From Escherichia coli (GTDB taxonomy: Bacteria > Pseudomonadota > Gammaproteobacteria > Enterobacterales > Enterobacteriaceae): 64,000 nucleotides of DNA. The translations under genes and the position numbers were made by a program. The stretch lies in the NCBI RefSeq assembly GCF_024502345.1, contig NZ_JALDNN010000001.1; one strand, 5' to 3'. Positions within the stretch are counted from its first letter, which is position 1, and each line of letters opens with the position of its first letter. Under the pieces are notes generated by a model. The model saw only the letters and a list, made by a program, of their open reading frames with translations, ran no database searches and had not been told where the DNA came from. Shown in pieces: positions 3,216 through 52,295 of this stretch.

Positions 3216-3302
3216 GACCCATTTATGCTGATATAAATTTAACTCAGACCAGTGCTTTTAGTTCTTCCTGCATATATGTTGAAAAGTATTCAGGATTTTT
3301 AA

Positions 3303-3602
3303 TCACAGAACGTTCACCTGTCTCCATTTTTTTGCCCATCCAACCATTTTTTCCGTGAACCCAGGGTTCCAGCCTTCCTGGTCAGCTCGCGCCGTAATAT
3401 CAGCGGCACTCGCGGGTACTCCCAGTTCTTTTAAATATTTAAAGATTCCCTTCGCCGTGCTTTCATTCATCGAACTTGGTGTTGGCGCTGATACATCCAT
3501 GGCACCAATGAAATCCAGGGCTTTATCTATTACAGCAGGCATATTCTTATCCTTAAAATTAACCATGTTATCGATAAGGCTATATATGACCTTAATTTGC
3601 AT
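3303..3602 (-). CDS. yoaC: DUF1889 family protein
   Basis: 99-aa ORF; conserved position. Confidence 0.78.
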   Translation of the reverse strand: MQIKVIYSLIDNMVNFKDKNMPAVIDKALDFIGAMDVSAPTPSSMNESTAKGIFKYLKELGVPASAADITARADQEGWNPGFTEKMVGWAKKWRQVNVL

Positions 3603-11885: not shown

Positions 11886-12095
11886 TTAGTCCTTAAATAC
11901 CTGCGCCAGCAGATTATGGAAATGGGCGATACCATGTTCGGAAATGCCGCTACCGCTACTGTCGGCCATGATGCGCCCCTGACCACGATAGCCACGCGAT
12001 TTCAGCCCTTTCTGTACGCTTTCAACCAGACGTAAATCTTCCGGACGGAACACATCGCGATACCACTCAATCAGCGATTTTTGCTCGTCGGTTAA
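11886..12095 (-). pseudogene. yeaW: 3-prime remnant of carnitine monooxygenase oxygenase subunit; N-terminal Rieske and catalytic domains absent
   Basis: 73-aa ORF ends 56 bp upstream of yeaX and its 5-prime end overlaps the dmlR start region; tail LTDEQKSLIEWYRDVFRPEDLRLVESVQKGLKSRGYRGQGRIMADSSGSGISEHGIAHFHNLLAQVFKD matches my recollection of the YeaW C-terminus. Confidence 0.6.
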
Positions 12096-12119
12096 CTGGT
12101 GAAACATAAAACACGAATC

Positions 12120-32230: not shown

Positions 32231-32390
32231 ATGAGTTATCTAGTATTTAAGCCTGTTATTAAGGGAGGGCAAATATACTTGTTAGGACGTCGTGTTTTAG
32301 CTGCAAGTAGGTTAAATGCAACACTGACAAGTATTATCTGGCCTACAATGTCATTGAGGAAATGTAGGCCAGAGATGAATTCAACTAATA

Positions 32391-37958: not shown

Positions 37959-39920
37959 ATGCGGTTGTTTATTGCCGAAAAACCGAGTCTGGCGCGCGCC
38001 ATTGCTGATGTCCTGCCCAAACCGCACCGTAAAGGCGATGGCTTTATCGAGTGCGGTAATGGTCAGGTGGTGACCTGGTGTATCGGTCACCTGCTTGAGC
38101 AGGCGCAGCCAGACGCCTACGACAGCCGCTATGCGCGCTGGAATCTTGCGGATTTGCCGATTGTCCCGGAAAAGTGGCAATTACAGCCCCGACCCTCCGT
38201 GATCAAACAACTTAACGTCATCAAACGGTACCTGCATGAAGCCAGCGAAATCGTTCACGCCGGGGACCCGGATCGCGAAGGGCAACTGCTGGTGGATGAA
38301 GTGCTGGACTATCTGCAACTGGCACCGGAAAAGCGCCAGCAGGTGCAGCGTTGCTTGATAAACGACCTGAACCCGCAGGCGGTTGAGCGGGCGATCGACC
38401 GTCTTCGTTCCAACAGTGAGTTTGTACCGCTGTGCGTTTCTGCGCTGGCGCGAGCGCGTGCCGACTGGCTGTACGGCATCAATATGACCCGTGCGTATAC
38501 TATTCTCGGTCGCAATGCCGGTTATCAGGGCGTGCTTTCCGTGGGACGCGTGCAGACACCCGTGCTCGGGCTGGTGGTGCGCCGCGATGAAGAGATTGAA
38601 AACTTCGTGGCGAAAGACTTCTTTGAAGTCAAAGCGCATATCGTGACACCTGCCGATGAGCGGTTTACCGCTATCTGGCAACCGAGCGAAGCGTGTGAAC
38701 CGTACCAGGATGAAGAAGGGCGCTTGTTACATCGTCCACTGGCGGAGCATGTGGTTAACCGCATTAGTGGTCAACCGGCTATTGTCACCAGCTATAACGA
38801 TAAACGGGAATCAGAATCCGCGCCGCTGCCTTTTTCGCTTTCGGCGTTGCAGATTGAAGCGGCAAAACGTTTTGGTCTGAGTGCGCAGAACGTGCTTGAT
38901 ATCTGTCAGAAACTGTACGAAACGCACAAGCTAATCACTTATCCGCGTTCTGATTGTCGCTATTTGCCAGAAGAACATTTTGCCGGACGCCACGCGGTGA
39001 TGAATGCCATCAGCGTTCATGCACCGGATCTGTTGCCACAGCCAGTGGTAGATCCAGATATACGCAACCGCTGTTGGGATGACAAAAAGGTCGATGCGCA
39101 CCACGCCATCATTCCGACCGCACGGAGTTCTGCGATCAACCTGACGGAGAACGAAGCGAAGGTCTATAACCTGATTGCCCGTCAGTACTTGATGCAGTTC
39201 TGCCCGGATGCGGTGTTCCGCAAGTGTGTTATCGAACTGGACATTGCCAAAGGCAAATTTGTCGCTAAAGCGCGTTTTCTTGCTGAAGCAGGTTGGCGCG
39301 CGCTGTTAGGCAGCAAAGAGCGCGATGAAGAAAACGACGGCACGCCATTGCCTGTGGTGGCGAAAGGCGATGAGTTGCTGTGTGAAAAAGGTGAAGTGGT
39401 AGAGCGGCAAACCCAGCCGCCGCGCCATTTTACCGATGCAACACTGCTTTCGGCGATGACCGGGATCGCGCGCTTTGTGCAGGACAAAGATCTGAAAAAG
39501 ATCCTTCGTGCGACCGATGGTCTGGGGACAGAAGCAACGCGTGCCGGGATTATTGAACTGTTGTTCAAGCGTGGTTTCCTCACCAAAAAAGGGCGCTATA
39601 TCCACTCCACCGACGCCGGAAAAGCGTTATTCCATTCGCTGCCAGAAATGGCTACGCGACCGGACATGACCGCGCACTGGGAATCGGTGCTGACGCAAAT
39701 CAGCGAAAAGCAGTGTCGCTATCAGGACTTTATGCAGCCGCTGGTGGGGACGCTATATCAGCTTATTGATCAAGCCAAACGTACTCCGGTGCGGCAGTTT
39801 CGCGGCATTGTGGCTCCGGGCAGTGGTGGCAGTGCTGATAAGAAAAAGGCTGCACCGCGTAAACGTAGTGCGAAAAAAAGTCCGCCAGCAGATGAAGCCG
39901 GAAGCGGGGCGATAGCGTAA
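37959..39920 (+). CDS. topB: DNA topoisomerase III
   Basis: 653 aa from [19 protein letters not shown]...; starts 4 bp after selD stop. Confidence 0.95.
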
Positions 39921-39960
39921 GCGAGCGAATCTTTCGTGCTATTCGAGTTATATTCTGAAA

Positions 39961-39999
39961 TATCCAGCGGATCAAGAAAATTCGTTGGATATTTTTTTT
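39961..39999 (+). terminator. rho-independent terminator after topB
   Basis: atccagcg ... cgttggat stem (one mismatch) followed by T8. Confidence 0.6.
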
Positions 40000-40047
40000 G
40001 CATGGATAAAATTATCGCCTCTAAAGTACGTAATAACAGGGAATGTG

Positions 40048-41036
40048 ATGAAAAAAGTTTTATTACAAAACCATCCTGGGAGCGAGAAGTATTCTTTTAA
40101 TGGCTGGGAAATATTTAATAGTAATTTTGAACGGATGATTAAAGAAAATAAGGCCATGCTGCTTTGTAAGTGGGGGGGGGGTATTTAACATGTGTTGTCG
40201 CTGTAATGTTTGTATTCGCAGCGATAACATCCAACGGTTTGAATGAAAGAGGCCTGATTACCGCGGGATGCTCATTTCTTTATCTATTAATTATGATGGG
40301 GCTTATTGTTCGGGCCGGTTTTAAAGCAAAAAAAGAACAGCTGCATTATTATCAGGCTAAAGGTATTGAGCCGCTCAGTATCGAGAAATTACAGGCGCTA
40401 CAATTGATCACACCTTATCGATTCTATCATAAGCAATGGTCTGAAACGCTGGAGTTCTGGCCGCGAAAGCCTGAACCTGGCAAAGATACCTTCCAATATC
40501 ATGTGCTTCCTTTTTACTCGATCGATATCATAAGTAAAAGACGCGAGTCTTTAGAGGATCAATGGGGTATCGAAGATAGCGAAAGTTATTGTGCCTTAAT
40601 GGAGCATTTTCTTTCTGGCGACCATGGAGCCAATACCTTTAAAGCAAACATGGAGGAAGCCCCAGAGCAGGTTATCGCCTTGTTGAATAAATTTGCTGTT
40701 TTTCCCTCTGACTATATCTCTGATTGCGCTAATCATAGCTCCGGTAAATCCTCGGCGAAGCTAATATGGGCGGCGGAATTATCATGGATGACCTCGATAT
40801 CAAGCACAGCTTTTCAAAACGGGACAATTGAAGAAGAACTGGCCTGGCATTATATAATGCTTGCTTCTCGAAAGGCGCACGAGTTGTTCGAAAGCGAAGA
40901 AGATTATCAAAAAAATAGTCTAATGGGATTTCTTTACTGGCATATCTGCTGCTATCGCAGAAAGTTAACGGATGCTGAACTTGAAGCGTGTTATCGTTAC
41001 GACAAGCAGTTTTGGGTGATGCTGCCAACTTACTGA
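40048..41036 (+). pseudogene. ynjI: DUF1266 inner membrane protein gene, disrupted twice (poly-G frameshift and IS1 insertion near 3-prime end)
   Basis: Frame from ATG 40048 (MKKVLLQNHPGSEKYS...CKW) stops at 40188; downstream ORF 40170..41036 is in a different frame; the two join in-frame if the G10 run were G8 or G11; last 6 codons lie inside the IS1 inverted repeat. Confidence 0.75.
40172..40181 (+). repeat. G10 homopolymer tract inside ynjI
   Basis: Ten consecutive G read directly at 40172..40181. Confidence 0.95.
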
Positions 41037-41069
41037 TTTAGTGTATGATGGTGTTTTTGAGGTGCTCCA

Positions 41070-41345
41070 GTGGCTTCTGTTTCTATCAGCTGTCCCTCCT
41101 GTTCAGCTACTGACGGGGTGGTGCGTAACGGCAAAAGCACCGCCGGACATCAGCGCTATCTCTGCTCTCACTGCCGTAAAACATGGCAACTGCAGTTCAC
41201 TTACACCGCTTCTCAACCCGGTACGCACCAGAAAATCATTGATATGGCCATGAATGGCGTTGGATGCCGGGCAACCGCCCGAATTATGGGCGTTGGCCTC
41301 AACACGATTTTCCGCCATTTAAAAAACTCAGGCCGCAGTCGGTAA
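41070..41345 (+). CDS. insA: IS1 InsA
   Basis: 91-aa [46 protein letters not shown]... Confidence 0.93.
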
Positions 41346-41767
41346 CCTCGCGCATACAGCCGGGCAGTGACGTCATCGTCTGCGCGGAAATGGACGAACA
41401 GTGGGGATACGTCGGGGCTAAATCGCGCCAGCGCTGGCTGTTTTACGCGTATGACAGGCTCCGGAAGACGGTTGTTGCGCACGTATTCGGTGAACGCACT
41501 ATGGCGACGCTGGGGCGTCTTATGAGCCTGCTGTCACCCTTTGACGTGGTGATATGGATGACGGATGGCTGGCCGCTGTATGAATCCCGCCTGAAGGGAA
41601 AGCTGCACGTAATCAGCAAGCGATATACGCAGCGAATTGAGCGGCATAACCTGAATCTGAGGCAGCACCTGGCACGGCTGGGACGGAAGTCGCTGTCGTT
41701 CTCAAAATCGGTGGAGCTGCATGACAAAGTCATCGGGCATTATCTGAACATAAAACACTATCAATAA
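41264..41767 (+). CDS. insB: IS1 insB frame; expressed as InsAB' transposase by -1 frameshift from insA
   Basis: 167-aa ORF in -1 frame relative to insA. Confidence 0.88.
41321..41327 (+). promoter_or_regulatory. A6C programmed -1 ribosomal frameshift motif of IS1
   Basis: AAAAAAC at insA/insB frame overlap; insA reads LKNSGRSR*, -1 frame reads KKLRPQSV... Confidence 0.8.
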
Positions 41768-41880
41768 GTTGGAGTCATTACCCAGTTTTGGGAGCACTAC
41801 AGTAAGAAATGCCGTTGGCCCATAAGAAATGTTCCCTGGGGAGCATCATCCGTTAAATACTCATAAACGCCTGAAATTTT

Positions 41881-41974
41881 GCCGGGGGCGCTGCGCTTGC
41901 CCGGCCTACATTAGAGCGTAACTGCAATGAATTGTGCCCATTTGTAGGCCTGATAAGCGTAGCGCCATCAGGCA
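41881..41974. repeat. BIME: two inverted REP elements
   Basis: gccgggggcgctgcgcttgcccggcctaca and tgtaggcctgataagcgtagcgccatcaggc. Confidence 0.7.
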
Positions 41975-41982
41975 TTTACAAC

Positions 41983-43326
41983 TTAAATCACACCCTGCGC
42001 CAGCATCGCATCGGCAACCTTCACAAAACCGGCAATGTTCGCGCCCTGCACGTAGTTGGTTTGCTCACCTTCACCACCATGCTCAACACAGGCATGGTGG
42101 ATATCCAGCATGATGTGATGCAAACGTGCGTCAACTTTCTCGGCTTTCCAGCCCAGGCGCGCAGCGTTTTGCGCCATTTCAAGGCCTGACGTTGCTACAC
42201 CGCCAGCATTAGCCGCTTTACCCGGTGCAAACAGTACGCCTGCCTGCTGGAACAGTTCAGTCGCTTCGATGGTGGTCGGCATATTTGCCCCTTCGGCGAC
42301 GGCTTTAACGCCATTGGCGATAAGCTGATGCGCGGCGTCAACATCCAGTTCGTTCTGGGTAGCGCAAGGCAGGGCGATATCAACCGGTACAGACCACGGC
42401 TGTTGGCCTTCGAGATAGACCAGACCAAATTCTTTGGCGTAATCTGCCACTCGACCATCGCGGCTGGCTTTGATTTCGATAAGACGTGCCAGTTTCTCTT
42501 TCGTGAATCCGCTTTCATCAACTACAGTGCCGCTGGAGTCTGACGCAGTGATCACCCGAGCACCAAATTCCATCGCTTTTTCGATAGCGTACTGGGCGAC
42601 GTTGCCGGAGCCAGAAACGGAAACGCGCATCCCTTCAAAACCCATACCGTGGCGTTTTAGCATTGCTTCTGTGAAATAAACCAGACCGTAGCCGGTAGCT
42701 TCCGGGCGAATAAGACTGCCGCCAAATGAAAGGCCCTTACCGGTGAAGACGCAGGCGGTATTGTTGGAGAGCTTTTTCATCATCCCCGCCATAAAGCCGA
42801 CTTCACGACCACCAACCCCGATATCACCTGCCGGAACGTCGGTATCCGCGCCCAGGTGGCGATACAGTTCAGTCATCAGCGCCTGGCAAAAACGCATCAC
42901 TTCACCTTCGCTTTTTCCTTTTGGATCGAAATCGCTGCCGCCTTTACCACCGCCCATCGGCAGAGTAGTCAGGGCATTTTTGAAGGTTTGTTCGAAGCCG
43001 AGGAATTTAAGAATGGAGAGGTTAACTGACGGATGGAAACGCATACCGCCTTTGTACGGGCCGATGGCAGAGCTGAACTGCACACGCCATGCACGGTTGA
43101 CCTGTACCTGATTGCGATCATCAACCCATACCACGCGAAACTGGATCACGCGCTCCGGTTCAACCAGACGCTCCAGTAATGACATCTGGCGATATTTTGG
43201 ATTTTGTTCAAGAAAAGGCCAGAGTGTGGTCATTACTTCACGAACGGCTTGCGCGAACTCGGTTTGATTCGGGTCGCGCTTTTGGACATGGTTGAGGAAT
43301 GACTCCAGAGAATATGTCTGATCCAT
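41983..43326 (-). CDS. gdhA: NADP-specific glutamate dehydrogenase
   Basis: 447-aa ORF MDQTYSLESFLNHVQKRDP... Confidence 0.97.
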   Translation of the reverse strand: MDQTYSLESFLNHVQKRDPNQTEFAQAVREVMTTLWPFLEQNPKYRQMSLLERLVEPERVIQFRVVWVDDRNQVQVNRAWRVQFSSAIGPYKGGMRFHPSVNLSILKFLGFEQTFKNALTTLPMGGGKGGSDFDPKGKSEGEVMRFCQALMTELYRHLGADTDVPAGDIGVGGREVGFMAGMMKKLSNNTACVFTGKGLSFGGSLIRPEATGYGLVYFTEAMLKRHGMGFEGMRVSVSGSGNVAQYAIEKAMEFGARVITASDSSGTVVDESGFTKEKLARLIEIKASRDGRVADYAKEFGLVYLEGQQPWSVPVDIALPCATQNELDVDAAHQLIANGVKAVAEGANMPTTIEATELFQQAGVLFAPGKAANAGGVATSGLEMAQNAARLGWKAEKVDARLHHIMLDIHHACVEHGGEGEQTNYVQGANIAGFVKVADAMLAQGVI

Positions 43327-43561
43327 AGATATAAAACCCTTATATATTAATACGATTGTGCTTATGTTGTTTATGTGATGTGCTTTTGCAGTTTTCGACT
43401 ATACCATCAAGAATGTGACGGTAAGCAAGAAAAAAATGACCCAGGAAAGCAAATTAATAACGAGAGTAATCTCATAACCAAATGCGATAACTCAGACGCT
43501 AAAGTTTTGCCACCCGGCTACCGTTATCAGTAGCAGAGACAATAACGTTAAGGAGTTCCCT

Positions 43562-51585: not shown

Positions 51586-52295
51586 CTATCCTTCATTTTT
51601 TGGGTGAGTAAGTGGGTTGCGGCGCGAAGCAGACAGATCCACATGTTTGTGTCGGGCGTAGAGTTTGGCGAGCTGGACGAGAATAAACAGCGCCAGGCCC
51701 GCCAGACAGAGTTGTAAAATAAAGCGCAGCGTAATGCCTTCATTGGCGAGATCGCTTGCCATCACGGTATAAATAACAATACCGGGCAGGGTCGTGAGTG
51801 CCGAAATAAGGGTATAAGGCCAGAAGGCGATTGTGGTTAATCCGTAAGCGTAATTTTGAATATTGTAAGGAAACAACGGGATTAAGCGGGTCAGAATAAG
51901 AAAATCAATACCGTTACGCGCGATGCCTTTTTCAATGGCCTGGAAGGTATGGCTATGGCCAACGTATTTCAGCAGTAAATCACGTCCCAGCCAGCGCGCC
52001 AGCAGGAATGAGCACGAGGAGGCCAGCGTGGCGGCAATTAATGAGAGTAGTGTTCCTAAGAGCGGCCAAAAACTATTCCTCCAGCGATCACCAGTATGCT
52101 TCCTGGTAACAGAAAGAGGGTGGCAATGATGAATAACAGAATATAGAGGCTATAACCGAACAATCCGCTCTGGCGGATGAGTGTCTGTAAGTGGGGTAAA
52201 TCGGTGAGCAGATCGAATAAACCGAAAGCGTGGATAGCGTAAATGACCAGCGCAAAAATAAGACAGGCAAAAAGAAATTTACGCTCAGCGTTCAT
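51586..52295 (-). pseudogene. ydjX: TVP38/TMEM64 family membrane protein gene with -1 frameshift
   Basis: N-terminal frame (MNAERKFLFA...GGIVFGRS*) stops at 52056; C-terminal frame continues PLLGTLLSLIAATLASS... to 51586; locus is 710 nt, one short of a multiple of 3. Confidence 0.75.

Follow-up and report, generated by a model that had tools for sequence, protein, structure and literature searches.

The window analysed here is a 64,000-nt stretch of Escherichia coli contig NZ_JALDNN010000001.1, and it is collinear with the E. coli K-12 chromosome from sdaA to osmE at 98.2 to 98.9% identity. Relative to K-12, it contains one inserted mobile element, a complete copy of the insertion sequence (IS) IS1, as well as three frameshifted genes. 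The IS1 lies near the 3' end of ynjI, with its insertion point at codon 322, and is flanked on both sides by the direct repeat CAGTTTTG. The interrupted gene sits between topB and gdhA, the same place as K-12 ynjI (b1762), and has in addition an altered poly-G tract near its 5' end. The features of the element and of the interrupted gene are listed below by window position and strand, with the left and right inverted repeats of the element abbreviated IRL and IRR and open reading frames as ORFs.

41015-41782, plus strand: IS1, complete and IS1B-like, 768 bp, with the transposase genes on the plus strand
41015-41037, plus strand: IRL, GGTGATGCTGCCAACTTACTGAT, with no mismatches to the canonical 23-nt end
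41760-41782, minus strand: IRR, GGTAATGACTCCAACTTATTGAT, with no mismatches to the canonical 23-nt end
41007-41014, plus strand: left duplication copy, CAGTTTTG, adjoining IRL
41783-41790, plus strand: right duplication copy, CAGTTTTG, adjoining IRR
41070-41345, plus strand: insA, 91 codons with a GTG start (ORF list and Pfam)
41264-41767, plus strand: insB' frame, coding for the catalytic DDE domain of the IS1 transposase (ORF list, Pfam, and NCBIfam)
41321-41327, plus strand: A6C slippery motif within TTAAAAAACTC, the site of the -1 programmed frameshift fusing InsA to InsB'
40048-41014, plus strand: 5' portion of ynjI, equivalent to K-12 YnjI codons 1-322, with the poly-G frameshift at codon 43
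40172-40181, plus strand: ynjI poly-G tract, G10 followed by one T, a gain of 2 nt over the G5T4 of K-12 that shifts the frame
41792-41866, plus strand: displaced native ynjI tail, the 24 codons EHYSKKCRWPIRNVPWGASSVKYS and a stop (tblastn and K-12 alignment)

The two ends of the IS1 each have one match in the 64-kb window and none in shuffled sequences, and the inverted repeats are also reported by an independent repeat search. A promoter-like site at 41022-41049 is in or adjoins IRL. The insA product matches both the Pfam Zn_ribbon_InsA domain (PF03811, 3e-21) and HTH_Tnp_IS1 (PF12759, 1.7e-30), and InsB' covers the whole of the DDE_Tnp_IS1 profile (PF03400, 2.3e-78, positions 1-131 of 131) and scores 143.7 bits against the NCBIfam model NF033558, transpos_IS1 (cutoff 100). 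The frameshift signal TTAAAAAACTC is located at 41319, and an in silico -1 shift there gives a 232-amino acid (aa) InsAB' protein; near-identical IS1 copies in RefSeq carry the annotation 'programmed frameshift'. In complete E. coli genomes, the closest copies are 99.9% identical, with a single mismatch, and are described in RefSeq as 'IS1-like element IS1B family transposase'. One substitution is private to this copy, an A at IS position 268 (window position 41282) where four other IS1 copies have C, and it is synonymous in insA. Judged by its sequence, this copy of IS1 looks intact and competent for transposition.

The octamer CAGTTTTG is not rare by itself, with six occurrences in the window versus 3.2 expected, and it is the placement of the two copies that is informative: both abut the IS1 ends exactly, for which the chance at a fixed position is 4^-8 (~1.5e-5). 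The independent repeat search reports a longer direct repeat of 10 nt, CAGTTTTGGG, at a spacing of 776; it reads as 10 nt because the first GG of IS1 equals the next two bases of the target. Combinations of element and duplication of 768 + 8, 767 + 9, and 766 + 10 are all formally compatible with the observed repeat. Duplications of 8 to 9 bp are typical of IS1, a range that agrees with a survey of other insertions at ynjI, and within that survey the 8-bp class is the minority, the eight other simple IS1 insertions of the topB-ynjI-gdhA interval comprising seven with 9-bp duplications and one with 8 bp. A duplication that is really 9 bp (or 10 bp), next to an IS1 lacking one (or two) terminal G residues at its left end, would suit both the 10-nt repeat and the commonest class at this locus, but it is a very improbable account. 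Both ends match the canonical repeats through the terminal GG, the element has the standard 768-bp length, and a terminal deletion that the target happened to hide with matching bases is the less parsimonious assumption. Moreover, an 8-bp duplication has precedent, because the ynjI insertion in ETEC1720, an independent case, also combines a full-length IS1 with 8 bp. Given a full-length IS1 with both canonical ends, a duplication of 8 bp is the parsimonious interpretation.

The interruption of ynjI is evident from a tblastn search with K-12 YnjI, in which residues 1-43 align at 40048-40176, residues 43-322 align at 40176-41015 in another frame, and the last 27 residues (320-346) have a 100% identical match at 41783-41863. 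At the left junction, IRL supplies the truncated gene with the last base of the Trp322 codon and then with six IS-derived codons and a stop (VMLPTY*), and the truncated ORF ends ...YDKQFWVMLPTY*, its stop codon occupying 41034-41036 and its last base being 41036. In silico removal of 41015-41782 together with one repeat copy yields a 1,043-nt ynjI that is collinear with the 1,041-nt gene of K-12 and differs from it in length at the poly-G tract only. The 288-aa ynjI ORF in the window scores 88.2 bits with PF06889 (DUF1266; cutoff 27), and ynjI scores 528 bits with the equivalog NF008480, PRK11380 (cutoff 386). Pfam DUF1266 spans residues 167-338 of K-12 YnjI and the truncated ORF matches profile positions 1-157 of 175; the insertion costs YnjI its last 24 residues, and with them about 18 C-terminal positions of the DUF1266 profile.

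This anatomy and the restored ORF are observed directly, and they bear out the original prediction, an earlier model-made reading of the window's letters. It had described a complete 768-bp IS1 with an 8-bp direct repeat on each side, inserted about 24 codons before the native ynjI stop, with the ORF running six codons into the IS1 inverted repeat and the displaced native tail legible past the right end. The element, with perfect ends, is confirmed at the expected length, the loss of 24 codons is verified against K-12, and the tail is that of K-12 YnjI; the description of the repeat is refined in that it reads as 10 nt through the GG coincidence. Its further expectations, that excision of IS1 and one repeat copy would rebuild a contiguous gene and that the uninterrupted C terminus would be that of YnjI, agree with the collinearity of the rebuilt gene, poly-G length difference aside, and with the identity of the final 27 residues.

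Relatives of the window were gathered as contigs encoding an identical TopB, and these fall into two groups, one with an empty site and one with the IS1 junction. Three near-identical IS-free contigs (L007, L010, and L011) have a single-copy empty site, CAGTTTTGGGAGCAC, in which one CAGTTTTG is followed by GGAGCAC, and over ~14 kb they differ from the window by 5 (of 13,973 bp), 8, and 14 mismatches, respectively; K-12 likewise has a single CAGTTTTG at its empty site. The insertion is younger than the split from these IS-free sisters, which differ by ~0.04% in sequence. In the second group, L012 and L013 share the left junction of the window exactly and end within the IS1, as is usual for assemblies from short reads. 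Searches for exact copies of the IS-truncated products add 20 further contigs with a 276-aa ORF and 10 with a 329-aa ORF, their sources being NCBI drafts, ENA human-gut metagenomes, and Logan runs, and each of those inspected has the same junction. At least 12 contigs with this junction were checked by sequence (including L012, L013, L016-L021, L024, and L025). Sister assemblies include GCA_024502245.1 and GCA_050022275.1, as well as the IS-free GCA_023599245.1. The 329-aa product is also represented in RefSeq (WP_306422446.1, labelled E. coli). The empty site and the shared junction are thus both direct observations, and the proposals of the original prediction to compare the locus with an IS-free allele and to look at the insertion site in related isolates, the latter done here in silico, are answered by these two groups. 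The IS1 insertion is a lineage marker common to several draft and metagenome assemblies.

The multicopy nature of IS1, which occupies a median of ~11 places per E. coli genome, raises the question of whether a repeat has been collapsed or misplaced in assembly, and the short-read contigs of the relatives do all break inside the element. Nevertheless, it is exceedingly improbable that the IS1 in ynjI is such an artefact: the window runs through both junctions, the target site is duplicated and the gene precisely split, the identical left junction recurs across samples in at least 12 independent contigs, and misplacement would not produce a target duplication.

The left junction is found in none of the 5,426 complete RefSeq E. 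coli genomes searched (at least 80% coverage), and the exact junction has no match among GTDB species-representative genomes. Nine apparent matches to the right junction in complete genomes were rejected as IS1 copies at other ynjI positions whose pieces had been merged; five of the nine were checked, and all lie elsewhere. The 22-kb flank at 41791-64000 has a best identity of 98.8% to any of the 5,426 genomes, the closest being a guinea-fowl isolate and O55:H7/O157:H7 strains, and is matched by draft and metagenome contigs at 99.9% identity or above. The source lineage seems to be one without a finished genome in the complete RefSeq collection. The 98.8% figure raised the idea of a Shigella origin, which is not supported: the 64 kb contain only three frameshifted genes and one IS, and RefSeq labels the truncated product E. 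coli. The junction ...GACAAGCAGTTTTG/GGTGATGCTGCC..., which occurs in 0 of the 5,426 complete genomes but does occur in several drafts and human-gut metagenome contigs, is a convenient marker for this lineage.

The poly-G tract behaves differently from the insertion. Tracts of G9, G10, G11, and G12 are found in contigs sharing this IS1 junction, with G11 being in frame and giving the 329-aa product with the IS1 truncation. The IS-free sisters have G8 (in frame, 346 aa), G9, or G10, and other E. coli have G5T4, G6T2, G8, or G9 (tracts sampled in L002, L007-L025, and L034-L043, some of them reached through a GdhA look-up that returned 63,614 blocks for this widespread protein and includes unrelated lineages). 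In-frame (G8 and G11) and out-of-frame (G9, G10, and G12) lengths therefore occur among contigs that differ elsewhere by no more than 0.1%, including those with the same IS1 junction. The out-of-frame N-terminal peptides are common in public contigs, those of G9 and G10 being present on at least 1,000 contigs each and that of G12 on 285. The claim of two independent ynjI lesions in the original prediction holds for this window, but the poly-G tract is not a stable lesion, because its length varies (G9-G12) among contigs sharing the same IS1. The tract changes, or is misread in sequencing, more quickly than the IS1 insertion came about; of the two, the insertion is the shared event and the older one in its lineage. 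The variability could reflect phase variation, a decaying gene, or, in part, sequencing noise.

These observations are best explained by the insertion of an IS1B-like copy into ynjI codon 322 by ordinary DDE transposition, in an E. coli host lineage with a long poly-G allele, an interpretation to which we assign a probability of about 95%. The chemistry follows established IS1 biology. A -1 frameshift at the A6C motif would yield the InsAB' transposase, which would bind the inverted repeats and connect the 3' ends of the IS to target strands cut with an 8-bp stagger at ...AAG/CAGTTTTG/GGAGCAC..., and repair of the 8-nt gaps would then duplicate CAGTTTTG. The product would fit a direct simple insertion or a resolved cointegrate alike. 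The YnjI frame now runs six codons into IRL and stops, with the native tail stranded 3' of IS1. Neither full-length nor IS-truncated YnjI can be made in this window, because ynjI is also out of frame at G10 (codon 43), and it is relatives with G11 that would make the 329-aa truncated product.

Several points weigh against this interpretation. The duplication is 8 bp, whereas most of the IS1 insertions surveyed have 9 bp, and the 8-bp length itself assumes a full 768-bp IS1, since the initial GG of the element is shared with the target. This junction is missing from all 5,426 complete genomes, and the independent support is drawn from draft and metagenome contigs, which end within IS1 and so display the left junction alone. 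As regards the activity of this IS1 copy, what can be shown is the intactness of its sequence. We infer a loss of function for YnjI, while no function appears in the ynjI and DUF1266 literature, and we likewise infer that the IS1 event was neutral.

Insertion of IS1 at this locus is not confined to the lineage of the window. Within the topB-ynjI-gdhA interval (homologous to window 39920-41983, with IS1 copies counted in the orientation of the query only), complete E. coli genomes (L001, L003, and L026-L033) contain 10 other IS1 copies at distinct positions. Eight are simple insertions in ynjI or the topB-ynjI spacer, in TOK-001, ABW_A32, CT02, 2021CK-01361, ETEC1720, JX21CE35, C21-2, and GDSC2239PM, and lie at reference coordinates 205, 226, 382, 529, 796, 855, 1046, and 1222, with the insertion described here at 1265. 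Seven of the 10 have 9-bp duplications, one (ETEC1720) has 8 bp, and two have none; the latter are strains 53 and A65EC, in which most of ynjI has been deleted next to the IS1. A65EC has the same left junction as GDSC2239PM, the pattern to be expected when IS1 mediates an adjacent deletion. An unrelated contig (L041) lacks ynjI entirely.

The GC content of ynjI is 41.5%, compared with 50.6% for the window, and such an AT-rich gene fits the preference of IS1 for AT-rich targets. A crude uniform expectation, from ~62,000 chromosomal IS1 places over ~5 Mb, is ~12 per kb across the collection, and ~25 to 30 same-orientation IS1 hits are observed in ~1.3 kb, with clonal relatives counted separately; the enrichment of IS1 in the interval is at most a few-fold. 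At least 10 distinct IS1 events in topB-ynjI-gdhA, two of them with adjacent ynjI deletions, together with a contig devoid of ynjI and the very common out-of-frame poly-G states, could mean that the insertion is not neutral and that loss or locking-off of YnjI has been selected, giving rise to recurrent IS1 hits. We consider this unlikely, as AT-richness and dispensability explain as much as a few-fold excess over a rough expectation, ynjI is probably already off at the G tract in this window, and no ynjI phenotype is known.

A related idea is that ynjI of the G8-G12 allele group is a true contingency gene switched by poly-G slippage, with IS1 hits and deletions representing recurrent selection for permanent shut-off of YnjI. 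The tract has one attribute of a phase-variable gene, namely, a long 5' coding homopolymer with in-frame and out-of-frame lengths in close relatives, and the G9-G12 lengths may include sequencing or assembly error. We regard this scenario as doubtful; if true, it would be a case of homopolymer phase variation of a core-genome inner-membrane protein, which is unusual for E. coli. The poly-G variability and the recurrent IS1 hits could bear on fluctuating selection on YnjI expression, although both lie outside the insertion finding itself.

YnjI is listed as an inner-membrane protein, and its promoter is activated by BglJ-RcsB with indications of H-NS/StpA influence. The ynjI and DUF1266 literature, in which papers on DUF1266 are almost absent, deals with regulation by BglJ-RcsB and H-NS only and reports no function, and a PDB sequence search with YnjI gives no match at E-values up to 1. 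Two features lie downstream of the displaced ynjI tail.

41983-43326, minus strand: gdhA, intact and convergent with ynjI, 99.6% identical to K-12 GdhA (residues 1-447)
41887-41966, no strand assigned: imperfect inverted repeat between ynjI and gdhA (repeat search)

No polar effect of the insertion on the downstream gene would be expected, because gdhA is convergent. The intergenic inverted repeat is presumably REP (repetitive extragenic palindromic)-like, and an Rfam scan of 39000-43500 finds no family.

Elsewhere in the window there are several further differences from K-12. In ydjX (51589-52295, minus strand), a 1-nt deletion at ~52065 (GGCCG in place of GGCCCG) breaks the ORF near codon 77; the gene could be a genuine pseudogene, or the deletion an error in sequencing. 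In yoaC (3247-3542, minus strand), an A8 homopolymer is A7 at ~3333 and the frame is shifted after about codon 70. Missing at 12093-12097 is a 3.7-kb K-12 segment that contains dmlA, yeaV, and the greater part of yeaW, and the junction is at a short repeated motif, TAACT...GGTGAA, present on both sides in K-12, which suggests that the dmlA-yeaW segment was lost by microhomology-mediated deletion. The 9.2-kb ydjE-ydjL sugar-acid cluster, between pncA and yeaC in K-12, is also absent, with ~145 bp of unrelated AT-rich sequence in its place at 32241-32385; yeaC is beside pncA in contigs L007-L015 as well.

Overall, this is a classic case of IS1 insertion, and the non-essential gene that it struck had probably been off beforehand. 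Public databases already contain the allele, and the event is of a known and routine kind; it is mildly unusual in its 8-bp duplication, in the hypervariability of the poly-G tract, and in the recurrent IS1 hits. Its value is largely one of annotation: the element should be labelled an intact IS1B-like copy, and ynjI here a pseudogene carrying two lesions.

Compared with K-12 YnjI (b1762; DUF1266, PRK11380), the interrupted gene has the same synteny and, after in silico repair, ~98 to 100% aa identity per segment, but its allele is G10T rather than G5T4 (codons 42-45) and frameshifted, and it is truncated by IS1 after codon 322. The other IS1 insertions in ynjI and its spacer are of the same family, fall in the same ~1.3-kb AT-rich interval, and have 8- to 9-bp duplications, although every one is at a position other than 1265. 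With the IS1B and IS1A isoforms of K-12 and plasmids, the element shares its length, IRL and IRR, insA, the A6C site, insB', the 232-aa fusion, and the three Pfam domains, and it differs from IS1B-annotated copies by one private synonymous substitution and by an 8-bp instead of the commoner 9-bp duplication.

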